Below, piece by piece: positions 23,918 to 54,179 of a stretch of DNA of 64,000 bases. The notes under the pieces are model-generated. The model had not been told where the DNA came from, did no database searches, and was given only the letters and a program-made list of their open reading frames with translations. The stretch lies in NCBI GenBank assembly GCA_031412555.1, contig JANODF010000069.1, forward strand, positions 1,608 to 65,607, given 5' to 3'. The position numbers were made by a program, and so were the translations under genes. How positions within the stretch are numbered: the first letter of the stretch is position 1; each line of letters starts with the position of its first letter. The DNA comes from Archangium sp. (lineage in GTDB: Bacteria; Myxococcota; Myxococcia; Myxococcales; Myxococcaceae).

Positions 23918-23925
23918 GGAGGAGC

Positions 23926-24624: not shown

Positions 24625-24729
24625 GCAGCGTGGCAAAGCAGGCGGCGGGCCAGCGCCAAGCGGCCGGATCAACGGCTTTTGCAGCGACGTTGGCAGCAAC
24701 CTGTCGTGCTCAGGTGGAGCATGCGCACT

Positions 24730-24774
24730 CCCCTCTCCCTTCGGGCCCTTCGGGAGAGGGTCAGCGTGAGGGCG
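24730..24774 (-). repeat. REP-like element, copy 2
   Basis: cccctctccc-ttcgggcccttc-gggagaggg-tcagcgtgagggcg, in the divergent intergenic region between the pseudokinase gene and ung. Confidence 0.75.
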
Positions 24775-24796
24775 CAAACCTGCTATCCGCCAATAC

Positions 24797-25465
24797 ATGT
24801 CGCTCCCCGAGCTCGTCCCCCAGGCGTGGAAGGCCCCGTTGTTCGAAGCCACCTCGGCCAGCTCGTTCACCGAGCTGAGCAACTTCCTCGATGAGGAATG
24901 GAACACGCAGGTCGTCTTCCCGCCCAAGCCGCAGGTCTTCGCCGCGCTCGAGCTCACGCCGCCCGAAGCGGTGCGCGTGGTGCTGCTCGGCCAGGACCCC
25001 TACCCGACCGCCGGCAACGCGAACGGCCTCGCCTTCTCCGTCACCAGAGAGGTGAAGATCCCCGCCTCGCTCAAGAACGTCTTCCTCGGTCTGCAAGCGG
25101 ATCTCGGGTTGCCCCTGCCGTCGAACGGAGATCTCACGCCGTGGGCACGACGCGGCGTGCTGCTCCTCAACGCGGTGCTCACGGTGCGGGAGAAGACGCC
25201 GCAATCGCACCAGAAGAAGGGGTGGGAAGCCTTCACCACCGCCGTGCTCCGTCACGTCGCGAGCTCACCGCACAAGGTGGTCTTCCTCTGCTTCGGCAAA
25301 CCCGCGCTCAAGCTGGTCGAGTCGCTCGGTACGCACCACCCCATCGTCGCGGCGCCCCACCCTTCTCCGCTCAACGGGCGCGCGTTCGTCGACGCGGTGA
25401 CGAAGGACAAGCTCTTCACGAAGGTCAACTCGCTGCTCGAGGCGCCGATCGACTGGAGCCTCTGA
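24797..25465 (+). CDS. ung: Uracil-DNA glycosylase, family 1
   Basis: Motifs VVLLGQDPYP, GLAFSV, LLLNAVLTV and HPSPLN are present; length is 222 aa. Confidence 0.9.
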   Translation: MSLPELVPQAWKAPLFEATSASSFTELSNFLDEEWNTQVVFPPKPQVFAALELTPPEAVRVVLLGQDPYPTAGNANGLAFSVTREVKIPASLKNVFLGLQADLGLPLPSNGDLTPWARRGVLLLNAVLTVREKTPQSHQKKGWEAFTTAVLRHVASSPHKVVFLCFGKPALKLVESLGTHHPIVAAPHPSPLNGRAFVDAVTKDKLFTKVNSLLEAPIDWSL

Positions 25466-40393: not shown

Positions 40394-40470
40394 CCCGCTG
40401 TGCAAATCTGCACGGGGTGCGTGCAGGGCCGGGCGTTTCCACACAGGCCGCCCACCGCTATCAAGGCACC

Positions 40471-41598
40471 ATGCGAATCACCCGACTCATGGTCTGCCTC
40501 ACCCTCGTTGCCTGTGGTGCGCCCGCTCCGACCGAGCCCGTCGAGCCGGAGTTGGTCTTCCCCGCGGAGCACGCGGCCTCCACCGAGGTCATCGCCTACG
40601 CGGAGTTCGATGCGGGTCAGGCCAGTGAGGAAACCGAGATGTCGTTGGCCCTGGGAGAAGAGTACCCACGCGAGTTGGTGGTCCGTCCGAGCAAGGGCTA
40701 CGCGCTGGGCGCCGGCTGCGGAACGGACCTTGGCAACCTGACATGGGCGAGCCTCACCTCGGTGGAAGGCGATGCGGCGGTCGTCGCACTCGAGTCGGGC
40801 GAGTTGAAGGTGTCGATCCAGAAGGAAGGCACGGTCTCGTTGCTGCTCGCAGGTGCGGTGGACCAACAGGATTGCCCCGCGGCGGATGGAACCAGGTTGA
40901 CCACCGTTCCGTTGCAGCATCGGCTGACGATGCGCGTCCACCGGGCGGTATCCGTGCTGGTGGAACAGCAGCATCAGCGATGGCCGGAGTGCGAGACGAA
41001 CGTGGTGCTGCCCTCGAACACTCTGTTCTGGGCGCCGCGCGTGCTTTTGGTCAACGCCGGGGGCCAACAGTTCTCGGCTGCAAACGCCCCGACGCCGAAC
41101 GGGCTGACGTTGCGTTCGAGTGGAGTCATCACCACGGAGGGAAGTCAGGCACGCGCCGAGCCCGGGCATGTGTCGATCTCGGTGAACACCTCGTTGCCCG
41201 TGCACGGGCTGCTTTCCTTCGAAGTGGTGGGCCCGGAGAGCGTCACCTCGGTGCAGGCCGAACTCTATCTGCGCAAGGCGGCCTCCAAAGGCAACGTGTC
41301 GGAGCCGCTCGTCGACGATCGGTCGTACCTGATCTGGAACCCAGGCCAGCTCAACTCGGTCGACCTGCGCGTCGGTGAAGTGCAGACGAGCCAGGGGCGG
41401 CTCTGCGCCCCGGTTCCCAACACGTGGTTCCAGGCCGTCTCTGCCACGCCAGCCCAGTGCGGTCCGTTCTCTGATGACGAACGATGGGGTGCAGACGTGG
41501 CCGTCGCGAAGATTCTCGGCGCAGGTGAGTGCCGTCTGGAGATCTCGCTGCCCGGCACCACCCAGCGCTGGACCACAAGATTCAAGACGACGAACTAG
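40471..41598 (+). CDS. Hypothetical lipoprotein
   Basis: ATG at 40471 gives MRITRLMVCLTLVACGAP (lipobox). The composition suggests a beta-rich protein. Confidence 0.65.
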   Translation: MRITRLMVCLTLVACGAPAPTEPVEPELVFPAEHAASTEVIAYAEFDAGQASEETEMSLALGEEYPRELVVRPSKGYALGAGCGTDLGNLTWASLTSVEGDAAVVALESGELKVSIQKEGTVSLLLAGAVDQQDCPAADGTRLTTVPLQHRLTMRVHRAVSVLVEQQHQRWPECETNVVLPSNTLFWAPRVLLVNAGGQQFSAANAPTPNGLTLRSSGVITTEGSQARAEPGHVSISVNTSLPVHGLLSFEVVGPESVTSVQAELYLRKAASKGNVSEPLVDDRSYLIWNPGQLNSVDLRVGEVQTSQGRLCAPVPNTWFQAVSATPAQCGPFSDDERWGADVAVAKILGAGECRLEISLPGTTQRWTTRFKTTN

Positions 41599-41655: not shown

Positions 41656-42024
41656 ATGGCGATACGGGGTCGGGCGTTGATTCTGCTGTTTGCATTCACG
41701 GGTGCTGCGTTCGCCGCCGAACCCGCACCGCTTCCCCTGATCGGCTCCGACACGCCAGACGCCTGGGGCGTACCCACCAGAACCGCGAACAAGCTCGTGC
41801 TGCGCCGAATGCTCTTCGAGCGCCGCTTCGTCGAGTTGGTGACCGCGCTCGAGGGCCTGCAGGCCATGTCCGACGCCGACTGTCAGCTCGAGCTCATGGG
41901 CCTCGACGCGTTCGAAGCCTTTCAGTCCAGGCGGAGAAGCTCGCCATGGATCTCGATCCGTTCGATCCAGCGATCCCGAAGTGACTCAGCGCCAGCGTTG
42001 GTCGGCATGCGTGGGGCCGTGTGA
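41656..42024 (+). CDS. Small secreted hypothetical protein, possibly frameshifted near nt 41925
   Basis: MAIRGRALILLFAFTGAAFAAEP is a signal peptide. After ...LDAFEAFQS the frame becomes Arg/Ser-rich with rare codons and overlaps the convergent gene. A -1 frame reads VQAEKLAMDLDPFDPAIPK and stops at 41984. Confidence 0.35.
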   Translation: MAIRGRALILLFAFTGAAFAAEPAPLPLIGSDTPDAWGVPTRTANKLVLRRMLFERRFVELVTALEGLQAMSDADCQLELMGLDAFEAFQSRRRSSPWISIRSIQRSRSDSAPALVGMRGAV

Positions 42025-43224
42025 TGTCACCCCCACCCGTGCACCGAGCCTGCGCTCGACCCAGTCGGCGAAGTCTCCGTCGGGAATCGGAGCCAGCGTT
42101 GGCGCTGCCCGTGAGAGCGCTCGAGTCAACGCGCTCTGCTGATCGAGCCGCTCGGGCGAGCCTTCAGGCGCGGTCAACGTCGCCAACTCGAAGTCGTAGC
42201 TCTCGACGAAGCGCGCCTGCACTCGGTCCACGTGCGTGAGCGCGAGCCAATCGACGCCACCATTCGCCCTGATCGCGTAGCGGAACAGAACGGGATCGAA
42301 CCACCCAATGCGAAACGCACCCTGCCAGCCCGCGCTCTGATTGTGAGGCTCGGGCAACACCAGTTCCCTGGACTCCGACGGGAGCGGGCCCGCACCGTGC
42401 CGGGTCAACATGGAGCGCAACACGCCCACCTTCTCCACCTGATGCGGCGAATCGCGCAGCCAGTGCAGCGCGTTACGCGCGGTGCAGGTGCTCCACGTGG
42501 TGTGAGGGTGAAAGCCGTGGTGTTCATCGAGCAGGATGCCTTGAGCACCTTCGAACACGATCGTGTGATCGCGGTTCACGTGCGCTGCTTCTTCATCGGT
42601 CATCAGTCGAAGCGGCAACGCGCGCACCACCTCCAACCAGCGCTGGGCCAACGATGGGTCCTGAAGCATCGACCAGTCGCCGTCCCGCGCGACTTCGGCA
42701 GGCAGCGACTCGACCAGCCGCACCCGAATGCGCTCGAGCTGTTCGCCGGCGCCGCGCAGTGCACCCAGCCGAAGTGCGTCGTCCGCGTGAGACAGCGCAT
42801 CACGCACCGTCTCGCCCACGCCGACGCCGCAGGTGCCGTTCCCCAGCAGGCGCTCCCTCAACCGACCCGCGGCCTGATGAAACGGAGTCGTCACCAGGCA
42901 ACGCGGATCAGCGGTGAGGCGAGTCATCGCATCGGGCACACCAGCGCGCGCGAGGTAGTCGGCTTCGACCGCGAGCGCGGTGGGGTGCACCACCACCTGA
43001 GCCGCGAGATGGGTGCGCACGCCTTCCACCAACGTGCCCGCGCCGAACTGCGCGAAGGTGTGGTGACGCCCCTCAGGCAACACCACGTTGTGACCTGCCT
43101 GCGCGCCGCCATTGAAGCGCACCACGAGACGGGCATCGAAGCGCCTGGTCAGCGCGTCAGTCACCGTGCCTTTGCCACAATCGCCAAAGCCGAGGCCGGT
43201 CACGATGAAGGCCCGCGGATTCAT
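41986..43224 (-). CDS. Adenylosuccinate synthetase-like protein (divergent PurA paralogue)
   Basis: ATG at 43224 gives MNPRAFIVTGLGFGDCGKGTVTDALT...VVRFNGGAQAGHNVV...GTCGVGVGETV. These are PurA family blocks, but the P-loop GDEGKGK reads GDCGKGT. Confidence 0.7.
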   Translation of the reverse strand: MNPRAFIVTGLGFGDCGKGTVTDALTRRFDARLVVRFNGGAQAGHNVVLPEGRHHTFAQFGAGTLVEGVRTHLAAQVVVHPTALAVEADYLARAGVPDAMTRLTADPRCLVTTPFHQAAGRLRERLLGNGTCGVGVGETVRDALSHADDALRLGALRGAGEQLERIRVRLVESLPAEVARDGDWSMLQDPSLAQRWLEVVRALPLRLMTDEEAAHVNRDHTIVFEGAQGILLDEHHGFHPHTTWSTCTARNALHWLRDSPHQVEKVGVLRSMLTRHGAGPLPSESRELVLPEPHNQSAGWQGAFRIGWFDPVLFRYAIRANGGVDWLALTHVDRVQARFVESYDFELATLTAPEGSPERLDQQSALTRALSRAAPTLAPIPDGDFADWVERRLGARVGVTSHGPTHADQRWR

Positions 43225-43277
43225 GTGTGGAGATCGCCAGACCTGCCATTCGCAATCAAGCGTGGCATCGTCTGCGA

Positions 43278-43865
43278 ATGGCATCACCGCTGGTGCACGA
43301 GTCGCTCAGAAACCCGCCGGTCACGCTGCCGCTCTCGGAGCGGGTCAACTTTCAGAGCCTGTTCGAAGGCTTGTTCGTGAAGGCGCTGGGGCCCGTTCCT
43401 CCCGAGGTCAAACTGGAGCTGAAGGCCGTGGGGGTCGATGTGGATCGTCTCCAGGCGGCGTATCCACAGAAAGTGCTCATCGCCGCTCTCGATGTGGCCT
43501 CAGGCCACTGGTTTCCCGGTGAGACGGTGGAGAGCGCGTACATCAAGCTCGGCTTGCGGAACATCGAGGGCTTCTTCGAGACCCTGATGGGCCGGCCGAT
43601 CCTGGCGTTGCTCAGGTTGATGGGTCTGAAGCGCACGTTGGGTCGCATGCGCACGAACTTCCGCAGCGCGAACAACTACGCCGAGACGAAGCTGGCCGAA
43701 GTGAGCCCGACGGAGTTTCAGCTGTGGGTCAACGAGACGGGTGAGTTCAGGTTCTTCACCCAGGGCGTCATTCAGGGCGGCGTGCGGGTGACTGGTGGGC
43801 CGAATGGCGTGGTGACGGTGATCGACACCAATGAGCTCGGCACCGTGTATCAGATCAAGATTTAG
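43278..43865 (+). CDS. DUF2378-like protein (myxobacterial paralogous family)
   Basis: ATG at 43278 gives MASPLVHESLRNPPVTLPLSERVNFQSLFEGLFVKAL...YPQKV...ETLMGRPILALLRL...FRSANNY. The length and pattern fit the TIGR02265-type family as I recall it. Confidence 0.55.
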   Translation: MASPLVHESLRNPPVTLPLSERVNFQSLFEGLFVKALGPVPPEVKLELKAVGVDVDRLQAAYPQKVLIAALDVASGHWFPGETVESAYIKLGLRNIEGFFETLMGRPILALLRLMGLKRTLGRMRTNFRSANNYAETKLAEVSPTEFQLWVNETGEFRFFTQGVIQGGVRVTGGPNGVVTVIDTNELGTVYQIKI

Positions 43866-43900
43866 CCCTCACCCCGACCCTCTCCCGAAGGGAGAGGGAG
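43866..43900 (+). repeat. REP-like element, copy 6
   Basis: ccctcaccccgaccctctccc-gaa-gggagagggag, filling the gap between the convergent DUF2378-like and vWA genes. Confidence 0.8.
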
Positions 43901-43901
43901 T

Positions 43902-44879
43902 TCACTTTCGCTTGAGTCTGCTGGGCCCGTCGGACACGTCGAGGACCTCGGCCGTCGACTCGAGCTTCAGCTTCGGAGCATCGTCTTTGCCCAGGCTCGC
44001 TGCGTACGGCATCAACGCGCGCGCCACCCGACCGATGCGACGGCCATCGAAGCCACCGTCACGCAGCTGCTTCGCCACGGAATCGAGCGTGTGCAGGCCC
44101 TGCCCCAACGCGAGCAGACCTGCCACGACCACGGTCGTGTCTTCGGGGCTCTCCAGACACACCACGCGATCGCCGAGCAGGTCACGCCACGCACGTTCAC
44201 ACTCCGCCCGGCGTTCGAGATCGGGAATGAGGAAGAACGGCTCGAAGGCGTGCTGCACTTCTTCCACCACCGACGCGAGCGGGAGATCGACCTCGAGATC
44301 TTCACCCAGCCACTGCTTCACCGCCTTGCGCGACACGTGGCTGTACGGCTTCTCGTCGCCGGTGAGGAAGAGGTACCCGCGCTGGCCCCGCTTCCGATGG
44401 CAATCGAGATCGAGGTGACGCGCCGCGAAGTAGAGAGCCAGGTCGTACGACTCGCGGTTGCCGGCACCGCCGCCGCCTTCGAGCCAGGACCAGGTGAGCC
44501 ATTGATCCATCAGCTCTGCGGTCGACTCGAACTGGCCGACCTGGAGCGGCGCGCGATCATCGAACGCATCGCCCACCGCCATGAACAACACCTGGGGATC
44601 CCGAATGCCGAACTCCCCCAGGCGCTTCATCAGCCCCGGGAGATCGTGCCGCGCGAGCCGTTCAGGCACCGCGCCCATCGAGCCGGTGACGTCGAGCGCG
44701 AAGGCGATGGCCAACGACTCCGGGTGTTGCGCGCTGTCGCGGCTCTCACGCAGCCCCACGCCGCGCGGATCCATCAGCGCATGGCAGGCGCGCTGCGCAA
44801 AGAGCTGCTGCGTGGGCTTCGTCGCTCTCTGCGAGGTCAGCGCCGCGTGGGCTTCGTAGCTGTACGCGCCGTACCCCAC
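43902..44879 (-). CDS. Cytoplasmic vWA-domain protein, paralogue B
   Basis: No signal peptide. The N-terminus is MGYGAYSYEAH. MIDAS is FALDVTGSM, followed by QVGQFESTAELMDQWL and YLFLTGDE. It is clearly paralogous (by eye, over most of its length) to the gene immediately upstream. The start lies 1 nt after that gene's stop. Confidence 0.8.
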   Translation of the reverse strand: MGYGAYSYEAHAALTSQRATKPTQQLFAQRACHALMDPRGVGLRESRDSAQHPESLAIAFALDVTGSMGAVPERLARHDLPGLMKRLGEFGIRDPQVLFMAVGDAFDDRAPLQVGQFESTAELMDQWLTWSWLEGGGGAGNRESYDLALYFAARHLDLDCHRKRGQRGYLFLTGDEKPYSHVSRKAVKQWLGEDLEVDLPLASVVEEVQHAFEPFFLIPDLERRAECERAWRDLLGDRVVCLESPEDTTVVVAGLLALGQGLHTLDSVAKQLRDGGFDGRRIGRVARALMPYAASLGKDDAPKLKLESTAEVLDVSDGPSRLKRK

Positions 44880-44880
44880 G

Positions 44881-45762
44881 TCACGCCTTCCCGTTGGCCG
44901 TGGCCCAGGGCCGCAGCGCTTCGGTCACCTGCTTCGCGCGCGTGTTGCCCGACTTGGTGAGGCTGGCTTCGAGCTGAGCGAGCCCCGACACGGCGCCTTC
45001 TCCCAGCGCGACGAGGCCGGCCGCAGCTGCGCAGGTGTCTGCGGGATCATCGAGCACGATGAACGACTCTTTGAGGTACGGGGTCCAGAAGGCCGAGACA
45101 CTCGCACCACGCTTGCGATCGGGCGCGATGAAGAACGGGTGGAACGTGCGCCGCACATCGGTGATGACCGCGTCGAGCGCCATGTCTTGCACGTCGGTAC
45201 CGATCCACTTCTTCACCAGCGCACCGGCGAGCGTGGTGTTGGAGGGCTCGTCGCCCGTCATGAACAGGTAGCCCTTGCGCTGACGCTTCTCCCAGCAGTC
45301 CATCGCGACGTGGCGCGCGAAGAAGTGGAACGCCAACTCGTAGAGTTCGTCGCCGCCGCCTTTGAGCGAACACTTGGTGAGCCAGCGATCCATCAGCTCG
45401 GCGGTGGTCTCGAACTGGCCGACCTGCAACGGCCGTCCATCGCCCGTCACGTCGGTCAGCGCAGCGAAGAGCACCTGCGGGCTCGCCACCTTCGCGTCGG
45501 TGAGCAGCTTCATGAAGCCAGGCAGTTGCTTGGTGGCGATGTCGACGGGAATGCTGGCCATCGAGCCGCTGATGTCGAGGGCGAAGACGATGCCCAGGGA
45601 GTCGGGGTTGTCCTTGCTGTCGCGCGACTCGCGGTACTTCACGCCCTTCGGATCCATCTTCGGATCGACGACGGTCCCCTTGAAGACCGCGGCGGCCGAC
45701 TGGCCCGCGCGGCTGGTGGTGATCGCCTGATGCGCTTCGTAGCTGTACGACCCGTAACCCAT
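44881..45762 (-). CDS. Cytoplasmic vWA-domain protein, paralogue A
   Basis: No signal peptide. The N-terminus is MGYGSYSYEAH. MIDAS is FALDISGSM, followed by QVGQFETTAELMDRWL and YLFMTGDE. It lies 24 nt downstream of the pseudokinase gene. Confidence 0.8.
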   Translation of the reverse strand: MGYGSYSYEAHQAITTSRAGQSAAAVFKGTVVDPKMDPKGVKYRESRDSKDNPDSLGIVFALDISGSMASIPVDIATKQLPGFMKLLTDAKVASPQVLFAALTDVTGDGRPLQVGQFETTAELMDRWLTKCSLKGGGDELYELAFHFFARHVAMDCWEKRQRKGYLFMTGDEPSNTTLAGALVKKWIGTDVQDMALDAVITDVRRTFHPFFIAPDRKRGASVSAFWTPYLKESFIVLDDPADTCAAAAGLVALGEGAVSGLAQLEASLTKSGNTRAKQVTEALRPWATANGKA

Positions 45763-45786
45763 GGGAAAGCTCCTTGCGGTGCGGCG

Positions 45787-46737
45787 TTAGTTCCAACCAG
45801 GCATCGAAAACGGCACGTACTTCGGCGGGCCGAACACTTCGCGGGCCACACGATCGACTTCAGCGATGAGCGCCCACCCGTCGGAGAAGCTCGCGGCGCG
45901 ATCCAGCAGGTGCTGCAGCGGTTCGGGCACCGAGGGGCCGAGGAGCGCCTGCACCGCGCGCGCACTCATGGAGAAGTCGAGCGCGGGCTGCGCCTCCACG
46001 CCCGGCGAGAGGCCACCCGCGGTCACCTTCACCTGTTCGCCGATGCGGGTCGCGCAAGAGAAGCCGATCAACCGCACACCGTGATCACGCGCGTGCACCA
46101 GCAGGTGCTCCGGCAACACCGCGGCGTGCACCCAGCCTGCGCCATGCAGCCACGCCAACGACTCGAGCACGCGTTTCCACAACCAGATCGACGCGCCCGC
46201 GGGAACTCCACCCGGGTACTCCGCGCGCACGTCATCGAAGGTGTGCACGAAGCCCGACGCGAGCCCGAGCACCATCACCTGGCGCGTGCCTTCGGTGCCG
46301 TGAATACCGAGGCGTGCTTCTCCGAACGCGACCGGCGAGGGCATCAAGCGGGAAAAATGCGCAGTGCCGTCACGGGTGGCGCGCTGGAGCGCAGAGAGCA
46401 CCTCCCACTCGCTGCGGAAGACGTCGAGATCGCCAGCCGCGCGCAGCATCTTCACCACCACCTGCTCCGAGAGGCGGTGATCGAAGCGGCCGAGAAACAC
46501 GTCGCTCGAGCTGCCCTTCGCCACCCGCCCGTCGAGGATGTAGCGGCGGCCACCCGCCCACAGCCGCGTCCGCCCGGGCTCCGGCAGATCGATCTCCGGC
46601 GGTTGCATCAGCCGCACGCCACCGGCCGTGGGCACGAGCGCGACGCCGCAGTAGTCGCAATGCATCACACCCGTCGGTGCCAGCTTCGGCAGCGGCGCAT
46701 TGCACTGCGGGCAGGTGACGAGCGTGTAGGTGACCAT
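45787..46737 (-). CDS. Zinc-ribbon + protein-kinase-like protein lacking both catalytic Asp residues (predicted pseudokinase)
   Basis: The N-terminus CPQCNAPLP...HCDYCG is a 4-Cys ribbon. The kinase-like core keeps the Gly-rich loop remnant AKGSSSDVF, the Lys (VVVKML) and the Glu (EWEVLSAL). The HRDLKPxN position reads HAAVLPEH and the DFG position reads GFS. Confidence 0.75.
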   Translation of the reverse strand: MVTYTLVTCPQCNAPLPKLAPTGVMHCDYCGVALVPTAGGVRLMQPPEIDLPEPGRTRLWAGGRRYILDGRVAKGSSSDVFLGRFDHRLSEQVVVKMLRAAGDLDVFRSEWEVLSALQRATRDGTAHFSRLMPSPVAFGEARLGIHGTEGTRQVMVLGLASGFVHTFDDVRAEYPGGVPAGASIWLWKRVLESLAWLHGAGWVHAAVLPEHLLVHARDHGVRLIGFSCATRIGEQVKVTAGGLSPGVEAQPALDFSMSARAVQALLGPSVPEPLQHLLDRAASFSDGWALIAEVDRVAREVFGPPKYVPFSMPGWN

Positions 46738-46938
46738 CCGTCGTGCAGCGTAGGCAGGTGCGTCTGCAACTTCTCAGGGAAAACGAAGCCTCCGTTTCCG
46801 CGTGGGCACTCTTCGACGCCTCCACCTCGACGTCCGTCTCCGGCGGCGGCTCTCGGTTTGCCGGGGTGTTCTTCTTGTTCTTTGCTTGATGCCTTTTCTG
46901 TCTGGCAGTTGGCCTGGGTTGCTTGCAAGGTGCGCGGA

Positions 46939-47301
46939 ATGATCACCACCCGTGCCCACGTCATCGTCGCCTTGTTTGCCATGCTCTCGTTGCAGGGCTG
47001 CTTCTCATCGGCCGTTCGAGCCAGCGGACCCAACGGCTCACGGCACTCCTCGGCGGGAGCGTCGCTCTTCTGGGGAATCACCACGCCGACTCACGGCGCC
47101 ACGCAGTGCACCAACGGGCTCAAAGAGGTCGAGATGTATCGCCCCTGGTACTCCTATCTCGTCGCGCTCGTCACCATCGGCATCGTCACCCCCATCACCA
47201 GCCAGTGGGAGTGCATGGGCGACAGCAGGATGGGTGACAGCAACAGGGGCGACACCAAGGCAGCCCCCATCGCCCCTCCCGCGATGGACCCGAAGTCGTA
47301 G
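46939..47301 (+). CDS. Bor/Iss-family lipoprotein homologue
   Basis: These are the last 120 codons of spurious ORF 45139..47301. MITTRAHVIVALFAMLSLQGC has a lipobox. SLFWGITTP...ATQCTNGLKEVEM...LVALVTIGIVTPITSQWEC parallels lambda Bor (HHFFVSGIGQ...KICGG...VKTE...GFITLGIYTPLEARVYC). Confidence 0.65.
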   Translation: MITTRAHVIVALFAMLSLQGCFSSAVRASGPNGSRHSSAGASLFWGITTPTHGATQCTNGLKEVEMYRPWYSYLVALVTIGIVTPITSQWECMGDSRMGDSNRGDTKAAPIAPPAMDPKS

Positions 47302-47314
47302 AACCCAGCCTCGC

Positions 47315-49402
47315 TCACCGCGCGCGCGCGCTCCCGGCCTGCGTCCCGCGAGGTGCGACCCAGCCGCTCGACGCGACCCCGGGGGCCGAGGTGCGACCGA
47401 GATCGAAGAAGAGCAACCGAGGTGGCGCCCACAAGGCGCACGCCGGGCACTCCCCGGTGGTGCGCACCGCCAGCCAGCGTCCATTGAAGCCGGTCGCGCC
47501 ACCGAGCTGCAGCGGCAGCGGCCACCCCGGGTCCACGCTCTGGTCATCCACCAGGAGGCAGCTCATCACCTCGCGGCCCGCGCGCTGCACCTGGTGCAGC
47601 CGGGTCTCGGCGTCCACGTTCCACAGCCCGCGCACCGTGAGGAAGAGCGCGTCGCCGCTGGCAGTCAGGTGCGCGTCGCTGGCCTCGGAGCCGAGGAAGG
47701 TGGCCAACTGCAGGCGCACCCCATGGTCCACGCGTTCCAGGCCGATGGTGTCGGGCAGGGAATCGAGCATCGAGCGGGACAGGCGGTAGCGGCCCTGCGC
47801 GCGCTCCGCCACGCCGGGCCACGACTCGACGTTCCACGCCGGCGGCTGGGGACTCTCGAGCACGGTGCCGTCGAGCGCGCTGCGCACGGAGTCGTCACGC
47901 AGCACCAGGCGATCGCCCATCACCATCGCGGGGGCCTGCCCCAGGTCCGCGAGCACGCTCACGGAGAACGCCAACCCACCGTCAGGCTCGTAGCGCTCGA
48001 GCACGGAGCCCAGCGGCGAGCCCGCCAGCCAGGTTCGTTGCACCAGCGCAGCGCCCTGCGCGTCGAGCAAAGGCCTGCCCACTTCACCGTCGAACTCGGT
48101 CTCACCCCGGGGCACGCCGGTCGCCACGTTCAGCCGGGCGAGCACCGACCGCGGCCGCCCCGAGACGCCGACCGAAGCGGTCACCCAGAGCGTGCCCCTG
48201 CCGTCTTCCGCGAGCGCGTTGATGTGGGTGGGCGGCGACTGGCTGGGCAACGGCCCCTGCCACGCGAGCGCTCCGGTGCCGACGTCGACGGCCACCAGGG
48301 TCGCTGCATCGGCCACGAAGATGAACAGGCCGCTGGCGATCAACTGCGTGTTCCGCGCGACGCCCTGCGGAACTCCGTGGAGGACGACGTCGGTGCGAAA
48401 GCGCTCGAAGCCCTCGGCCGTGTAGGAGATGGCCTCGCAGTGGAAGGTCGGGTTGGTGGGCTTGTTCGCGCCCCCGCACTCAACCCAGTACCAGTTGCCC
48501 TGCGCGTCGGTGATGCCCTCGAAGCGGAAGTCGCCGTGGCCCGAGACGTAGCTCCAGCGCGGGTGCAGGTCGGTCTGCGGAGGCACCACGCACGCCTGTT
48601 GGTGACAGGTGCCCTCCCCGCGACAGGCCGACTCGGGCGTGCAGGTGAAGCCTTCGGGAGGCACCACCGCGCGGCAGGTGCCGGCGAGGCAGATGTTTGC
48701 GAGCGTGCAGCTGACGGCTCCGCACGGGGTGCCGTCCAGCACCGGCGCCGAGCCACACCCGAGCAGGGGATCGCAGGTCGGCGCGAGGCAGGGGTTGGTC
48801 GGCGCGGTGCACTCCGCCGCGAGGTGCTGACAGCCGCGGCCCCGCGCACACGAATCGCTCGTACACGCGTCGTGATCGTCGCACCGCGCGGCCGTGCCGG
48901 CACAGACGCCGCTGAGGCAGGCACCGGCCTCGATGCACTGCAGCTCATCGGAACAGCTCGCGCCGTCTTCACGCAGCGTGTGCACGCAGCTCAGCGAGTC
49001 GGGGTCGAACCGCACCACGTCGCAGGGGCCTGACGCGCCGCAGTCCACCGCCTCGACACCCTCGCCGGTGACGGAGACCTCGAGGGCATCGAGGAACAAG
49101 GTGGCGGTGGCCCTGCCGATCGCGGTGGGCGTGAAGGTCAGCTGCAGCTCGACCTCGGTTCCGCCGGGCACCTCGAGGGCGCCCGGTGCGCTGAAGGGCG
49201 CCTCGATGGCGACCGGGAGGGTGCGGGCGACGCGGGAGCGATTGACGACGCGCACCACCTGGGCCCTCGGGAAATTGAGGGCGGTCGCCGGGAAGTCGAC
49301 ACGCTGGGGAACGGAGACCTCGCCCGAACCCAGTGAAACCACTCCGGGCTCGGCACACGCCGACAACAGGCTGACAAGAACTGCGAGGCGGAGCGAGGGC
49401 AT
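47315..49402 (-). CDS. Large lipoprotein: Ig/ASH-like N-domain, Cys-rich module, PQQ/BamB-like beta-propeller
   Basis: MPSLRLAVLVSLLSAC has a lipobox. The N-domain resembles the VDFPATAL...VVRVVNRS...LQLTFTP fold. A Cys-rich stretch of about 150 aa follows (CDDHDACTSDSCARGRGC...). The C-terminal region has repeated beta-propeller-like blades. Confidence 0.7.
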   Translation of the reverse strand: MPSLRLAVLVSLLSACAEPGVVSLGSGEVSVPQRVDFPATALNFPRAQVVRVVNRSRVARTLPVAIEAPFSAPGALEVPGGTEVELQLTFTPTAIGRATATLFLDALEVSVTGEGVEAVDCGASGPCDVVRFDPDSLSCVHTLREDGASCSDELQCIEAGACLSGVCAGTAARCDDHDACTSDSCARGRGCQHLAAECTAPTNPCLAPTCDPLLGCGSAPVLDGTPCGAVSCTLANICLAGTCRAVVPPEGFTCTPESACRGEGTCHQQACVVPPQTDLHPRWSYVSGHGDFRFEGITDAQGNWYWVECGGANKPTNPTFHCEAISYTAEGFERFRTDVVLHGVPQGVARNTQLIASGLFIFVADAATLVAVDVGTGALAWQGPLPSQSPPTHINALAEDGRGTLWVTASVGVSGRPRSVLARLNVATGVPRGETEFDGEVGRPLLDAQGAALVQRTWLAGSPLGSVLERYEPDGGLAFSVSVLADLGQAPAMVMGDRLVLRDDSVRSALDGTVLESPQPPAWNVESWPGVAERAQGRYRLSRSMLDSLPDTIGLERVDHGVRLQLATFLGSEASDAHLTASGDALFLTVRGLWNVDAETRLHQVQRAGREVMSCLLVDDQSVDPGWPLPLQLGGATGFNGRWLAVRTTGECPACALWAPPRLLFFDLGRTSAPGVASSGWVAPRGTQAGSARAR

Positions 49403-49522
49403 GACCCCGGACTTGGCAACAGGCGTGCCGAGGTCGACGCTTCGGGTTGAGCGCAGGGCTGCCGGGTCGACAACCGACCGGGCTGGTGTGGACCCGTGGT
49501 CAGCCGCCCCTCTCGCCGCGCT

Positions 49523-51649
49523 TCAGGGCCCGTATTCCCAGGTGTCGGAGAGAACGGTCGCGCCCGTGCCGTAGCCGCCGAACATCACCACCCGTCCGCG
49601 CACCGAATCGAAGGCCATGCCGTGCAGATACCGCGCTGTAGGCGCCGTGCCCGGCACACGCGCGTTCCACCCGAGCCCGTTCCACAGCCAGGTGTCTGCT
49701 GCGTAGACCGCGGTGGAGGTCGAGCCGCCGAAGAGCAGCAGCCCGTCTTGCTGCGCGACCAGGGCGTGGCCGGTGCGCGCGGGTGGAGCGACGGGGGTGG
49801 TCTGCCGGCGCCAGCTCGTGCCGTCCCAGGCCCAGGTGTCGTTGAGGGCCGCCATCGTGGGGCTGGGGTCGAAGCCGCTGAACAAGACCGACACGCCGTT
49901 CGTGACGTCGAAGGCCATCGCGGGCGCAGCGCGCGCCACCGGGGACAGCGGAGGCGCGCGCTGAGTCCAGCTCGTGCCGTCGTATTCCCAGGTGTCCACG
50001 CTCGTCGTTCCGCCGAAGAGCACCACACGTTGGCGTTGGGCGTCGTACGCCATGCCAGGTGATGCGCGGATGGGCGGAGAGGCCGCGGTGACGATCCGAG
50101 TCCAGGTCGAGCCGTCGAACTCCCAGGTGTCGTTGAGGCGATTGAAGCTGCCCACGGTCATTCCGCCGAAGAGCACGAGGCGCTGGCGCATCGGATCGTA
50201 GACCATCGCGGCGAGGCTGCGCGACGAGGGCTGCGTGGTGAGGCTCAGCTGCACCCAGTTCGCGCCGTCCCACGTCCACGTCTCCGCGGGCGGAGTCGCG
50301 GGGTTGCTCGAGGTGCCGCCGAAGAGCACCACCTTGTTGAGCTGCGCGTGGAAACCCAGCGCGGCGCCGTAACGCGCGGAGGGACCCGGCGTGCCGGAGG
50401 TGCGCTGCTGCCAGGCCCACGGCGCGCCGCATTGCCCCGCCGCGTACTCGAGGCCGGTGTTGCAGGTGATGCCGCAGGCGCCCTGCGCACAGCTCGCACT
50501 TCCGAGCGTGACGGTTGGGCACGGCGTGCAGGAAGTGCCGCAGCTCTCGACCGAGGTGTTCGAGAGACACTGCTGGCCGCAGCGATGGAAGCCGGTGTTG
50601 CAGGTGAAGTCGCAGGCAGCGCCGGTACAAAGGGGCGTCGCGTTCGCAGGCGTGGTGCAGGGTGCGCAGGCACCGGCGCACTGGCGGAAGCCTGCGTTGC
50701 ACTGCAGCGCGCAGCTCGTTCCGTTGCACGAGGTGGTGCCGTTGGCGTCGGTGGCGCAAGGCGCGCACGACATGCCACAGCCGTCGACCGAGTTGTTGGC
50801 GAGGCACTGCGTGCCGCAGCGGTGCGTGGTGCCGGGGCAGGTGAAGTCGCACGAGGCGCCGCTGCACACGCGCGTGGCGTTGGCCGGCGTGGAACAAAGC
50901 GCGCAGGCACCGTTGCAACGAAGCGCGTCAGGGACACACTGAATTCCGCACGCGCCGCTCGCGCAGGTCGCCGACGCGTTTTGCTCAGAGGGACAGGCGG
51001 TGCACGACGCTCCGCAGCTCGCGGTGGAGTCGTCGGGGACGCAGGCTTCGCCGCAGAGGTGACGGCCCGCGGGGCACTGACAGGTGGTGCCGTTACACGC
51101 GGCGCCCGGGGGACAATCGACCGGGAGCCGGCAACCGGGCAGACACTTCAAGCTGGCAGGCTCGCAGAAGTAGCCCGGAGCGCAGCCACCCGCTGCGCGG
51201 CAGTCTGCGGGCAGCGGCGCGCAGGTGCCGCGGTTGCAGACCTCGCCCGCGCTGCAGGAAGCGCCGCAGCGGCCGCAGTGGGCCACGCTGCTCTGGACAT
51301 CGACACAGGTGGCGCTGCATTCGACGAGCGTGCCGGCGCAGCGTGAAGCTCCACCGCCACCACTCCCTCCGCCGCCGCCGGTACCGGCGTCCGTGCCACC
51401 ATCACCTCCGCCCGCGCCGCCGCCCGTCGCGCTCGGGGGGATGCAGAAGCCCGCCTGGCAGGTGAAGGACAAACCGCAGGCAGCGCACTGCGCGCCCTGG
51501 CTCCCGCATTGCGCCGAGGTCGTGGGGTCGAGGCAGGTCTTCACGTCGACGCAGCACCCGCTGCAGGTGGCCGGACCGCACGGTGCGCTCGGCTTCTGAC
51601 AAGCGATCAGGGCCAGCGGGGCGATCAGCAACAAGACGAGGAAGCGCAT
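49523..51649 (-). CDS. Lipoprotein with tandem Cys-rich repeats and C-terminal Kelch-repeat propeller
   Basis: MRFLVLLLIAPLALIAC has a lipobox, followed by a Gly-rich linker. Repeats of the type HRCGxxC...SCGxSCxxC...C..G.C...C span aa 197-407. Kelch blades of the type VLFGG...DTWEWDGxxW fill the last ~300 aa. Confidence 0.8.
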   Translation of the reverse strand: MRFLVLLLIAPLALIACQKPSAPCGPATCSGCCVDVKTCLDPTTSAQCGSQGAQCAACGLSFTCQAGFCIPPSATGGGAGGGDGGTDAGTGGGGGSGGGGASRCAGTLVECSATCVDVQSSVAHCGRCGASCSAGEVCNRGTCAPLPADCRAAGGCAPGYFCEPASLKCLPGCRLPVDCPPGAACNGTTCQCPAGRHLCGEACVPDDSTASCGASCTACPSEQNASATCASGACGIQCVPDALRCNGACALCSTPANATRVCSGASCDFTCPGTTHRCGTQCLANNSVDGCGMSCAPCATDANGTTSCNGTSCALQCNAGFRQCAGACAPCTTPANATPLCTGAACDFTCNTGFHRCGQQCLSNTSVESCGTSCTPCPTVTLGSASCAQGACGITCNTGLEYAAGQCGAPWAWQQRTSGTPGPSARYGAALGFHAQLNKVVLFGGTSSNPATPPAETWTWDGANWVQLSLTTQPSSRSLAAMVYDPMRQRLVLFGGMTVGSFNRLNDTWEFDGSTWTRIVTAASPPIRASPGMAYDAQRQRVVLFGGTTSVDTWEYDGTSWTQRAPPLSPVARAAPAMAFDVTNGVSVLFSGFDPSPTMAALNDTWAWDGTSWRRQTTPVAPPARTGHALVAQQDGLLLFGGSTSTAVYAADTWLWNGLGWNARVPGTAPTARYLHGMAFDSVRGRVVMFGGYGTGATVLSDTWEYGP
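50429..51061 (-). repeat. Coding tandem repeat: about 2.7 copies of a ~78-aa Cys-rich unit
   Basis: The units are HLCGEACVPDDSTASCGASCTACPSEQNASATCASGACGIQCVPDALRCNGACALCSTPANATRVCSGASCDFTCPGTT / HRCGTQCLANNSVDGCGMSCAPCATDANGTTSCNGTSCALQCNAGFRQCAGACAPCTTPANATPLCTGAACDFTCNTGF / HRCGQQCLSNTSVESCGTSCTPCPTVTLGSASCAQGACGITCNTG. Confidence 0.8.
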
Positions 51650-51756
51650 GGCCGAGCAGTAGCACGCTCGGCGACTGCTTCTCGCTCACCCCCACCAGCA
51701 GACCCTTCGTCGCTCGAGGCGTCGTCGAAGGCTCCAGCTCCTCCTCAGTCGTCACT

Positions 51757-52425
51757 TCAGATCGCGTTCAGCTTCGCGACGGACTCTGCGGTCAGCTCGA
51801 GTTGAATCTCGTTGGTGCGCATGAACCAGGGCTTGAAGGGCGGGTCGTAGCGCGCCCACAGCGGCTCCCCCTGCGTCGAAAGACCGCTGGTGCCCAGCGC
51901 CCGGGTCAACCCCTCGAGGTGCTCCTTGTAGTTTTCATCGCTCCAGGTCCCCGAGTAGCGAATGACCGCGACCACCCGCTCGGGCACTGCGCTCAGCTCG
52001 ACGAGCGGATCGTTGGGCGTCGGCAGCGTGGCCAATGAGAAGGCCGACGGCATCGAGAACTGCACCGTCCACTTGCGTGAGGTCCCTGCGGCGGTCTCTG
52101 GCTTGTCTTCCTGCTGGGTGACGGGGGCGGTCATGTCGATGCGCTGCGACTGCGTCACCGGCGCCGTCATGGCGATGCTGGTTCGCGTCTTGTTCCCGCC
52201 GAAGATGTAGCCCCCGAGCCGGCGAAACGCCTCGTTGCCTGCGTCGGTGCGGCTGGCAGCCTCGACCTGCGTCTGCGCCACGACGTAGCTGGGGTACCGG
52301 CGCACCTCGAAGGTCTTGAACACTTTGACCACGTCGTATTTGGGCGACTCGATTTCCCCAGCCATCGTCACTGCGCTCCAGGTCAAGATCGCGGCCAGAA
52401 CAGCTTTCGTGCTCATCTCCATCAC
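51757..52425 (-). CDS. SOUL heme-binding family protein (secreted)
   Basis: A signal peptide is followed by ESPKYDVVKVFKTFEVRRYPSYVVAQT...IAMTAPV...IDMTAPV...WARYDPPF, which is typical of SOUL/HBP. Confidence 0.8.
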   Translation of the reverse strand: MMEMSTKAVLAAILTWSAVTMAGEIESPKYDVVKVFKTFEVRRYPSYVVAQTQVEAASRTDAGNEAFRRLGGYIFGGNKTRTSIAMTAPVTQSQRIDMTAPVTQQEDKPETAAGTSRKWTVQFSMPSAFSLATLPTPNDPLVELSAVPERVVAVIRYSGTWSDENYKEHLEGLTRALGTSGLSTQGEPLWARYDPPFKPWFMRTNEIQLELTAESVAKLNAI

Positions 52426-52721
52426 CTAACCGCCCCGCGGTTCGACGCCCCTACCGGCGCAGGCAGCAGCGCCATGCCGTGTGCGGTCGACGGCGCAGTC
52501 CTGCCCGCATCAGAACCCACGGCCTCGTCGGCAGTCAGTTCGGGCTGTGAACAGGCCCCTGCTGAAGGGCGGAAGCCGCGCAGTCGATTCGCGCGCTCGA
52601 AAAGGTGCCGGTCGAACTCGCCTGGTACTGCGCAGCAGAACGCGGCGAGTCGCGACTCGGCGCAATCCGCGCAACTCACCTCCACGAAGCCGAACCTGGC
52701 TGATGCTCGCCCGCGTCCCCG

Positions 52722-54179
52722 CTACCCGGCCAGCTCGCTCCACATCAGCAGGTCACCCCGCGCCAGGTATGTCTTGTCGGCGAACGCAGAATAGAAGTCC
52801 TCGAACACCGCCTCGAAGTCGGGGTAGCGCGAGTCTTTCCGGTCCTGCGTCATCTTGTCGAAGATGGGATCCATCTTGCTGGGCACGTCGGAGTTGATCT
52901 CGGACGGCAGCGGGCTGCGGCGACCGGGGATCTGACCGGTGAGCATTTCGTAGAGGAGAATGCCCAGGCCGTACACGTCGCTCGACGGGCCGGCTTCTTT
53001 CGAGCGGCTGATCAGCTCGGGGCTCATGTAGCCCATGCCGCCGGTGCCCACGAACACCTGGGGCATGCCCTTGCTCTGATCGACCTCGATCACCCGGCCG
53101 AGGCCAAAGTCACCGATCTTCGCGTTGCCCCACGCGTCGAACAACACGTTCTCGGGCTTCACGTTGTGGTGCGTCAGGCCCTGCTGGTGCGCCGCGCGCA
53201 TCGCGTAGGCGATCTGCAGGAAGTAGCGCATCGCCTGCGGCACCGGGATGCCCTTGCCACCAGCCGCGTCGAGCTTCTCGCGCAGGCTGCCCTTGAGCAG
53301 CTCCATCACGAAGTAGGGCCGCGCCACGTCGGTGTTCTGATCGAGCACCTGCACGATGCCGGGGTGACGCACCTGCGCCTGGGCACAGAGTTCTTTCTTG
53401 AGGCGCTTGATCACCTCGCCGCGCTGCAAGAACGAGAAGTAGCCGAAGATGTCCTTCAACTCCTTCACGCACACGTCGAGGCCGAGCGCGTTGTGCTTGC
53501 CCTTGTAGACGGTGCCCAGCGGGCCCGAGCCCAGCTGATCATTCTTCTGGTACCGAAGATCGAGGTCCTGCCCCTTGTTGCCCGGCGAGCCCATGCCCGA
53601 GGGGCTGGAGACCTGCACGGCCGCGGTCAGCTGCATCGGCGCGGGCGGAGGCGGGGGCGGATTGCCGTACCCACCGCTGGAGCGCACTTCTGGCGCGGTG
53701 ACCTGGGGAAAGCCGTCGTCCTGGTTCTTGCGACCACCACGGTTGGGAGGCTGGGGCATCGGGTTCGACTCCATGGAGATGTCGGTGGCAGGCAGCGGGG
53801 GAGGCGGCGCGATGGGAGGCGCCGGAGGGCTCGACTGATACGCAGGCTCGTCTTCGAGCGGCGGGGGCGGCGGCTGCCCGTCGGTGATCTGCTCGGCGAA
53901 GAAGTCGGCGATCTCTCCACCGAACCGCTCCACCTCTTCACCTGAGGTCACACGATCGCCCTGATCCGTCAGCTTGAGCTGGGCTTCGCGATCCATCGCG
54001 ATGTAGTGAAATTTGCGGAGGAAGAAGAAGTAGCTGTCGAACTCGAGCGACACCGAGTTCTCCAGGCCCATCTTCACGTCAGCGAGCTTGTTGGAACGCC
54101 CGAGCCGCACGTTCTCCTTGAGGCTCTTCAAGATGAAGAGCGCATCTCCGCTCACTTTGTCGCGTGTCGTCTCTGACAT
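52722..54179 (-). CDS. Ser/Thr kinase-like protein with HRD replaced by HHN; unknown N-terminal domain and Pro-rich linker
   Basis: The Gly-loop LGSGPLGTVY, the Lys (VCVKEL), DFG (GDFGLG) and SPE are present, but the catalytic loop reads LTHHNVKPENVLF (Asp to Asn). Confidence 0.8.
   Translation of the reverse strand: MSETTRDKVSGDALFILKSLKENVRLGRSNKLADVKMGLENSVSLEFDSYFFFLRKFHYIAMDREAQLKLTDQGDRVTSGEEVERFGGEIADFFAEQITDGQPPPPPLEDEPAYQSSPPAPPIAPPPPLPATDISMESNPMPQPPNRGGRKNQDDGFPQVTAPEVRSSGGYGNPPPPPPAPMQLTAAVQVSSPSGMGSPGNKGQDLDLRYQKNDQLGSGPLGTVYKGKHNALGLDVCVKELKDIFGYFSFLQRGEVIKRLKKELCAQAQVRHPGIVQVLDQNTDVARPYFVMELLKGSLREKLDAAGGKGIPVPQAMRYFLQIAYAMRAAHQQGLTHHNVKPENVLFDAWGNAKIGDFGLGRVIEVDQSKGMPQVFVGTGGMGYMSPELISRSKEAGPSSDVYGLGILLYEMLTGQIPGRRSPLPSEINSDVPSKMDPIFDKMTQDRKDSRYPDFEAVFEDFYSAFADKTYLARGDLLMWSELAG

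Follow-up and report, generated by a model that had tools for sequence, protein, structure and literature searches.

Three adjacent genes of the myxobacterium Archangium sp., encoding a zinc-ribbon pseudokinase (G1) and two paralogous proteins with a predicted von Willebrand factor A (vWA) fold (G2 and G3), are a local variant of a module found in bacteria of at least six phyla, on megaplasmids, in about 200 mycobacteriophages of the Bxz1 type and on at least 352 contigs from uncultivated viruses. The genes lie in a 64,000-nucleotide stretch of DNA, here called the window (GenBank assembly GCA_031412555.1, contig JANODF010000069.1, positions 1,608 to 65,607 of the forward strand), and the module to which they belong also includes a divergent relative of adenylosuccinate synthetase (PurA); in the window the vWA-like gene is duplicated and the PurA-like gene has been split off by a DUF2378 gene. 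In our assessment the folds are known, but the system that they make up is of a kind not recognised before, with a function that can be proposed only conditionally; neither the vWA-like/PurA-like pair nor the trio is described in the full-text literature that was searched, a coverage that stops short of subscription-only publications.

The module in bacterial genomes

One genome per species was scanned with an alignment of the vWA-like family, which gave at least 412 confirmed relatives, and the best 80 loci, those most similar to G2, were compared using hidden Markov models (HMMs) of the G1 and G2 families and all-against-all clustering of the open reading frames (ORFs) within 6 kb on each side. 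These 80 loci come from Myxococcota, Chloroflexota, Burkholderiales, Verrucomicrobiota, Acidobacteriota, Planctomycetota and others, at least six phyla in all. A G1-type gene stands immediately upstream of the vWA-like gene on the same strand in 72 of the 78 loci that could be assessed, and a gene for a PurA-like protein of ~440 amino acids stands immediately downstream in 64 of 71; all three occur in the same order in 66 of the 80, and clustering of the ORFs from these loci revealed no fourth conserved gene. The conserved unit in genomes is one pseudokinase, one vWA-like protein and one PurA-like protein, and since, genome and viral loci taken together, no other gene accompanies the vWA-like gene as constantly as the PurA-like one, we count the latter as a core component and not as context.

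This changes the picture given by a first-pass annotation of the same DNA, which had described an uncharacterised three-gene module of a pseudokinase and two tandem vWA proteins and had treated the neighbouring PurA paralogue as accessory. The module is indeed unnamed, conserved and probably co-transcribed, but its composition was drawn too narrowly, since it left out the PurA-like gene, and the trio with two vWA-like genes is confined to a few myxobacterial loci, so that the tandem duplication is a local feature. Myxococcus and Corallococcus show yet another order: pseudokinase, vWA-like, PurA-like, vWA-like.

Viral and plasmid copies

The first-pass annotation also missed the abundance of the module in lytic phages. 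A tblastn search with G2 found a vWA-like gene in 219 GenBank phages, namely 200 mycobacteriophages of the Bxz1/C1 type, Rhizobium phages of ~207 kb and Vibrio phages. The Bxz1-type mycobacteriophages carry the trio; in ScottMcG it consists of genes 252 (annotated "kinase"), 253 (hypothetical, vWA-like) and 255 ("PurA"), with gene 254 between the last two, and gp252 aligns with the G1 family at an hhalign probability of 99.7%. Published phage annotations of the trio read "kinase", "hypothetical" and "PurA-like" (PMC9476963), and the three proteins map to the PHROG families phrog_3043 ("kinase"), phrog_2971 ("unknown"; matched by G3 at E 1.2e-54) and phrog_1211 (adenylosuccinate synthetase). 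In the Rhizobium and Vibrio phages the vWA-like and PurA-like genes are paired, and no pseudokinase is detectable.

The same reduction is seen among uncultivated viruses. When 80 of the viral loci in IMG/VR were compared, 76 had an adjacent vWA-like/PurA-like pair, with many of the genes overlapping or abutting, and 19 of them also had the pseudokinase; many of the contigs are 90-416 kb long with 26-40% G+C. Because 76 of the 80 loci hold the pair and 19 the pseudokinase, the vWA-like and PurA-like genes are the constant, irreducible core of the module, and the pseudokinase is a frequent accessory. In 40 of the 80 viral loci, mostly those without a pseudokinase (e.g. L095:4630-4998), the gene immediately upstream of the vWA-like one encodes a protein of ~123 amino acids; this protein has no Pfam match, and Rhizobium phage TM30 has a small protein with a HIRAN domain in its place. 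We considered whether this protein and a phage upstream protein of ~351 amino acids might be cryptic pseudokinases, and rejected the idea on hhalign probabilities below 0.2% and the absence of a Pfam match.

The vWA-like proteins

G2 (44881..45762, minus strand, 293 amino acids) and G3 (43902..44879, minus strand, 325 amino acids) are 45% identical (E 4e-89) and have in common the N-terminus MGYG[SA]YSYEAH...RESRDS and a DxSGS/DxTGS motif, which in G2 reads DISGS...TGDE; their paralogy and shared N-terminus had been noticed by eye and are borne out by the alignment. The accompanying claim, that both are vWA proteins with an intact metal-ion-dependent adhesion site (MIDAS), survives in part, for the motif and the predicted fold agree with it, but neither protein matched anything in Pfam, NCBIfam or PADLOC (each at E<0.1) or among the sequences of the PDB. 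With these searches empty, it took structure prediction to confirm the fold. The AlphaFold2 model of G2 (predicted local distance difference test score, pLDDT, 91.3; predicted template-modelling score 0.92) gave 158 PDB matches in Foldseek at E<=1e-3, those to integrin and other vWA domains at E ~1e-6 with a template-modelling (TM) score of up to ~0.6 on the target, and all 50 among the matches listed are vWA-type, mostly integrin beta-I and alpha-I domains, together with collagen VI, von Willebrand factor A3 and the pilus adhesin SpaC. Relatives of G2 and G3 give sub-threshold matches only, to VWA, VWA_CoxE and DUF444 (the last in 9 of 25 relatives with a best E of 0.0058, and not in G2 itself). 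G2 and G3 are called vWA-like here on the strength of the motif, the fold prediction and these sub-threshold matches in some relatives.

An alignment of 25 sequences has invariant M1, G4, Y6, S7, A10 and H11, R44, E45 and D48, and the segments DxS/TGSM, PLQVGQFE and TGDE; at the sequence level the presumptive metal-site residues D63, G66, S67, T169, G170, D171 and E172 are invariant and position 65 is S or T. The M-G-x-G N-terminus is near-invariant from Archangium to mycobacteriophages and Vibrio phages in a family that comprises 1805 proteins at 90% clustering and 2045 clusters at 50%. Since 83 of 91 family members are nearer to G3 and 8 to G2, G3 is the mainstream orthologue, equivalent to the single-copy form of other phyla and of phages, and G2 a derived, lineage-specific duplicate of a small myxobacterial clade; the two occur together in only a few myxobacterial loci (L001, L002, L003 and L005). 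Six Sandaracinaceae/Polyangiales loci (L004, L044, L045, L065, L070 and L072) have solo vWA-like paralogues with no pseudokinase or PurA-like neighbour, and the MGYG motif is kept in five of the six, the ORF call of L045 beginning downstream of it, so that a loss of the N-terminal motif linked to loss of the partners is not seen.

Some proteins of the module are oversized, and we rejected gene fusion as the cause, since the extra length comes from inteins. One vWA-like homologue (P0334) is interrupted by an intein with a weak, sub-threshold Hint match, and a viral PurA-like protein (L164:5936-8335) holds an intein splicing domain and a LAGLIDADG endonuclease. Inteins usually reside in proteins that are important for the fitness of the element that carries them.

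The pseudokinase

G1 (45787..46737, minus strand, 316 amino acids in the ORF list) begins with a ribbon of four cysteines (C9, C12, C27 and C30, encoded at ~46648-46713), which are kept in 93-98 of 102 relatives, and continues into a kinase-fold domain at residues ~60-316. Its AlphaFold2 model, built from an alignment of 27 homologues (pLDDT 90.2), has the bilobal protein-kinase fold without the full set of catalytic residues, and Foldseek matched it to YabT (8e-11), CK1 delta and PknB (E ~1e-10) at TM scores of ~0.58-0.68, and also to the pseudokinase VRK3. Profiles register this relationship faintly, with a Pfam Pkinase match at E 0.017 and 15 bits against a cut-off of 31.7 bits and partial kinase-domain matches only in NCBIfam and PADLOC. 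Both the ribbon and the kinase-like core read from the letters alone in the first-pass annotation are upheld by these results.

The same is true of its statement that G1 keeps the ATP-anchoring Lys and the helix-C Glu and lacks both catalytic Asp residues. When G1 is aligned to a Chk1 entry, HAAVLPEH falls over HRDIKPHN and GFS over the DFG position (DYS in that entry). Among 102 family members, the beta3 Lys is present in 94, the helix-C Glu in 92 and the His of the HRD motif in all 102, and the HRD Asp position is Ala in 68 and Asp in 18; the catalytic-loop Asn is replaced by His in 98 and the DFG Asp by Gly in 101. Not one of ~97 members examined from bacteria, plasmids and viruses combines the HRD Asp with the DFG Asp: Variovorax proteins of the G1 type have HRD with GWS, and phage forms have HGA with DW. 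On these motifs, the designation as pseudokinase applies to the entire G1 family. The retained Lys-Glu pair suggests that nucleotide binding may persist.

The N-terminal module varies. In the pseudokinases of actinobacterial plasmids and in several from phages and viral contigs there is no zinc ribbon; they have instead a J-domain-like N-terminus with an HPD motif, as in AVHPDRVP (ScottMcG), LLHPDRNP (L144) and LIHPDRVD (pLPS8), with examples at L081:3892-4965, L084:3930-4994 and L144:4016-4981. The Pfam DnaJ profile matches viral members L144, L097 and L107 at E 2e-4 to 1e-2, which is sub-threshold, and we take the HPD motif as a hint of Hsp70 recruitment. Because one N-terminal interaction module has been swapped for another on a catalytically incomplete kinase fold, the arrangement would fit a role as an adaptor.

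The PurA-like protein

The PurA-like gene (41986..43224, minus strand) encodes a putative ligase dependent on guanosine triphosphate (GTP), of 412 amino acids when counted from Met22 of the listed ORF. It matches Pfam Adenylsucc_synt (PF00709) at E 3.3e-55 and remains far below the NCBIfam cut-offs for PurA (148.6 bits against 402), TIGR00184 (127.7 against 395.55) and PurZ (45.5 against 300). It is 42% identical to gp255 of mycobacteriophage ScottMcG (E 3e-76), a much nearer match than E. coli PurA (E 1.5e-29).

Pairwise alignment, numbered by the E. coli enzyme, and conservation over 57 PurA-like members distinguish what has been kept from what has changed. Asp13 and Lys16 of the P-loop (GD-GKG), His41 (AGH) and Gln224 (FEGAQG) are conserved in at least 95% of the members, and the equivalent of the guanine-binding Asp333 is also conserved. 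In place of Asn38, Thr129 and Arg131, contacts of inosine monophosphate (IMP) in PurA, there are Gln, Cys and Val, and the segment Thr300-Thr301-Gly-Arg303-Arg304-Arg305 has become Trp-Gln-Gly-(gap)-Ala-Phe, in which W-Q-G and the next Arg are family-conserved. This segment is the L-aspartate-binding loop of PurA, as known from E. coli structures and R303L mutants, and R303L mutant structures are among the PDB matches of the PurA-like protein. The replacement of the loop points to an amine substrate other than aspartate; the enzyme would keep the GTP-dependent activation of a 6-oxopurine nucleotide and turn it to a different amine.

Phage members of the PurA family have usually been dismissed as auxiliary purine biosynthesis or studied only as PurZ for 2-aminoadenine DNA. 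The PurA-like genes described here form a large, separate clade that is tied to a dedicated cytoplasmic vWA-like protein and often to the catalytically incomplete kinase-fold protein as well. A 2026 survey counted 481 phage homologues of PF00709, of which only the 151-sequence PurZ group, including a few non-phage sequences, has been characterised (PMC12884076).

The locus in Archangium

In the window, where G+C is 64-72% throughout, G1, G2 and G3 lie on the minus strand with gaps of 24 nt and 1 nt, as the first-pass annotation and the ORF list agree, and they are probably a single transcription unit. The closest relative, a metagenome-assembled genome of Archangium sp. (L001), has a G2 protein that is 99% identical and shows 93% nucleotide identity over the G1-G3 region (blastn); there the PurA-like gene starts 60 nt past the stop of G3. 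Positions 7878 and 7884 of L001 align to 43886 and 43262 of the window, which marks a 623-bp insertion in the window (43263..43885, plus strand). The insertion, which we place outside the module, carries a gene of the DUF2378/TIGR02265 Myxococcus paralogous family at ~43278-43865 (Pfam DUF2378 8e-39, TIGR02265 8e-37) that is absent from L001; lying on the opposite strand, it splits the PurA-like gene from G3 and interrupts the operon.

A terminator-like scan found a GC-rich hairpin, CCCTCTCCC-GAA-GGGAGAGGG (43878..43898, not assigned to a strand), in the gap that separates the stop codons of the convergent G3 and DUF2378 genes; it lies at the border of the insertion missing from L001 and looks like a repetitive extragenic palindromic (REP) element or a bidirectional terminator. 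The translation of this sequence, CCCTCTCCCGAAGGGAGAGGG, as PLPKGEG reappears near 24700, within ORF 23926-24957, which suggests a dispersed REP-like element. Between the divergent starts of the PurA-like and DUF2378 genes, a perfect 11-nt inverted repeat, TGCCATTCGCA / TGCGAATGGCA (43244-43254 and 43273-43283), may be an operator.

The flank upstream of G1 is variable, measuring ~5.9 kb in the window (46789-52729) and ~0.9 kb in L001; in the window it holds a small lipoprotein, a secreted Cys-rich protein of 695 amino acids with a weak BamB-type (PQQ_2) match and a Cys-rich Kelch-repeat protein of 708 amino acids. Pfam identified the PurA-like, DUF2378, Kelch-repeat and, weakly, BamB-type neighbours and returned no match for ORF 40417-41598 or for the lipoprotein ORF, so that the earlier label "Bor-like" for the latter is left unsupported. 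Nor does a second kinase-like/vWA pair, once proposed as evidence that the pairing recurs in the window, belong with the module: 22679-24957 holds a canonical secreted Cys-rich VWA lipoprotein (Pfam VWA 2.4e-10; start probably near 23914) after an unrelated ORF without a Pfam match, and hhalign puts the probability of a relationship at 0.6% for the G2/G3 family and at 0.06% for the G1 family.

Proposed function and alternatives

From the gene composition, folds, motif states and linkage that we observed, we infer the chemistry, the formation of a complex and the roles of its parts, and we favour, as a tentative reading that may well prove wrong, a GTP-dependent complex that aminates purine nucleotides and has three components: a pseudokinase acting as adaptor, a vWA-like protein of MIDAS type in the cytoplasm, and the PurA-like enzyme. 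The PurA-like protein would be the catalytic effector and, in the manner of PurA, would spend GTP on phosphorylating a purine nucleotide at its 6-oxo group, after which an amine other than L-aspartate would displace the phosphate and give an N6-substituted adenine-type nucleotide. The vWA-like protein would be its obligate stoichiometric partner, bound through the metal site and acting as activator, scaffold or substrate presenter. The pseudokinase would transfer no phosphate but probably still bind nucleotide. Its part would be that of an optional sensor or adaptor whose N-terminus, a zinc ribbon in the bacterial forms and a J-domain-like HPD module in those of phages and actinobacterial plasmids, links the complex to other partners.

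Several points weigh against this proposal. The substrate, the product and the protein contacts are all inferred, the differences in the active site could merely retune a normal PurA, and the MIDAS site of the vWA-like protein is putative, with motif and predicted fold as its basis. Three invariant histidines of the pseudokinase, H204, H211 and H219, leave room for non-canonical catalysis. The linkage percentages come from the loci closest to G2 and may not hold for the most distant of the 2045 clusters. Finally, the operon in the window has lost its PurA-like gene, which makes coupled expression uncertain in this particular genome.

An unlikely alternative is a system of nucleotide-based immunity and counter-immunity, in which a bacterial defence triggered by the pseudokinase or a vWA sensor detecting infection depletes or poisons the nucleotide pool and a phage counter-defence rebuilds or alters adenine nucleotides. 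The patchy occurrence over many phyla, megaplasmids and phages would suit such a role, as would the different flanks of the window and its closest relative. Occasional neighbours related to nucleotides or nicotinamide adenine dinucleotide (NAD) speak for it as well (loci L084, L085, L010, L025 and L083): NUDIX genes beside the trio on Rhodococcus and Allorhizobium megaplasmids, NadM-Nudix in the flanks of the Accumulibacter copy and NADAR in Vibrio phage Va1. A NUDIX-box regular expression matched in only 2 of the 80 genome loci. The kinase domain of G1 resembles the defence kinases mad6 (2.8e-8) and PD-T4-6 (5e-7) in PADLOC, but these are matches of generic kinase-domain similarity, and the vWA-like and PurA-like proteins have no match at E<0.1 in PADLOC-DB v2, which covers systems to 2023. 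The flanks, examined by Pfam in ten flanking genes, differ by lineage and are of housekeeping type (CNNM/CorC, DEAD-box helicase, sulfatase, DUF1501, EamA) rather than defence islands, and gene order around the module holds steady among the 9 loci of Variovorax and among the 4 of Myxococcus/Corallococcus. Because the flanks are of this type, synteny is stable and PADLOC has no model for the core proteins, a typical defence island is argued against, and it is in large lytic phages, to which abortive infection would be of little use, that the module occurs most often. A role in conflict is nevertheless kept open by the patchy distribution over phyla and by the copies in phages and plasmids.

Rather less probable again is an ordinary adenylosuccinate synthetase isozyme, serving auxiliary purine biosynthesis with two dedicated regulatory subunits. 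Such a reading draws on the Pfam Adenylsucc_synt match (3e-55), the conservation of D13, H41, Q224 and the guanine-specifying D333 equivalent, the database annotation as PurA and the position of the phage copies among nucleotide-metabolism genes. It has to contend with replacements in the aspartate loop (T300, T301, R303 and R305) and in the IMP contacts (T129, R131 and N38) that are themselves conserved in the family, with a score of 148.6 bits against an equivalog cut-off of 402, and with a nearly obligatory pairing to a vWA-like gene, whereas canonical PurA needs no such partner.

We consider it highly unlikely that the module is a machine for protein maturation or assembly, in which the PurA-like protein would be a SIMIBI-type GTPase switch, the vWA-like protein would remodel or metal-load a client in the manner of the vWA partners of MoxR ATPases (CbbO, NorD, CoxE), and the pseudokinase would recruit the client or Hsp70. 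PurA does belong among the P-loop GTPase-related enzymes, the MIDAS motif is conserved, some pseudokinase variants have the J-domain-like HPD motif, and at one plasmid locus an AAA ATPase and a DUF5682 gene follow. However, the strictly conserved D13, H41 and Q224 speak for enzyme chemistry and not for a pure switch, no client gene is conserved in the 80 genome and 80 viral loci, and the DnaJ matches are sub-threshold.

A bolder version of the proposed amination, which we regard as a long shot, makes the PurA-like protein a protein-nucleotide ligase: the amine would be the alpha-amino group of the exposed Gly in the near-invariant M-G-x-G N-terminus of the vWA-like protein, the product a covalent N6-(protein)-adenylate, and the pseudokinase would gate or target the reaction. 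To our knowledge, this type of modification is not known in any organism. In a weaker version, a new free N6-substituted adenine nucleotide may be a signal or an antimetabolite in phages and bacteria. We find it barely credible that a variant TerY-P phospho-signalling triad, with a dead kinase and two vWA proteins as the complete unit, explains the locus: kinase and vWA folds are co-encoded, but the 80 genome loci contain no PP2C or other conserved fourth gene (no PP2C-specific HMM was run), no kinase of the family has a full catalytic set, VWA/TerY-type profiles miss the vWA-like proteins, the vWA duplication is confined to a few loci, and 57 of 80 viral loci do without the pseudokinase but not without the PurA-like gene. 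The gene neighbourhoods thus already contradict this reading.

Should the module prove to make a new nucleotide or protein modification, it would represent new purine chemistry in phage-host biology. It would also give phrog_2971 a function and require that the present assignments of phrog_3043 (kinase) and phrog_1211 (adenylosuccinate synthetase) be re-examined.

Relation to known systems

As the first-pass annotation had supposed, the module matches no known system at high confidence, and every known system that we considered fails at least one defining feature. TerY-P triads consist of a TerY vWA protein, a PP2C phosphatase and a Ser/Thr kinase. The likeness that was drawn to them, kinase-fold and cytoplasmic vWA-fold genes in one operon, breaks down on all that defines the triad: the module has no phosphatase, its kinase is incomplete in every member, its vWA protein is of another family that TerY-type profiles miss, and its defining partner is PurA-like.

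A second likeness is to the PrkA/YeaG-YeaH(DUF444)-SpoVR/YcgB stress triad, in which a kinase-type protein and a vWA-like protein of the cytoplasm are likewise co-encoded with a third whose role is unclear; weak DUF444 matches occur in 9 of 25 relatives of G2 and G3. Those matches are far below threshold, however, there is neither the AAA+ architecture of PrkA nor a SpoVR, and the third gene is PurA-like; we rejected membership on the content of the 80 genome neighbourhoods, which hold no conserved extra genes. The pairs of MoxR AAA+ ATPases with vWA proteins (CbbQ-CbbO, NorQ-NorD, CoxD-CoxE, RavA-ViaA) similarly couple a cytoplasmic MIDAS vWA protein to a nucleoside-triphosphate-using partner, and some relatives have weak VWA_CoxE matches, but here the partner is PurA-like and not an AAA+ ATPase. 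No AAA+ neighbour is conserved in the 80 genome or 80 viral loci, an AAA ATPase being present only downstream of the Allorhizobium plasmid copy, and membership in this group was also rejected.

The pseudokinase resembles non-catalytic kinases of the VRK3 type in its protein-kinase fold, its degraded catalytic motifs and its retained Lys-Glu pair, and the phage and actinobacterial forms resemble phage J-domain proteins in their HPD motif. It differs from both in the fusion of the kinase fold to a four-cysteine ribbon or J-like module in its fixed genomic coupling to the vWA-like/PurA-like pair, and in the invariant His at the Asn position and at the beta7-beta8 turn.

The PurA-like protein is akin to PurA and PurZ, with which it shares the fold and the family PF00709, the P-loop GD-GKG and the FEGAQG segment, the catalytic Asp and His and the Asp that binds guanine; like PurZ, its clade is also common in phages. 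It departs from PurA in the aspartate loop (T300W, T301Q, R303 gap, R304A, R305F) and in N38Q, T129C and R131V, and it scores far below both equivalog cut-offs. All phage PurZ carry Ser at the position of Asp13, which the PurA-like family keeps (GDCGKG) (PMC12884076). What sets this enzyme apart from both PurA and PurZ is, in addition, the company that it keeps, for its gene is paired with a vWA-like gene and theirs are not.

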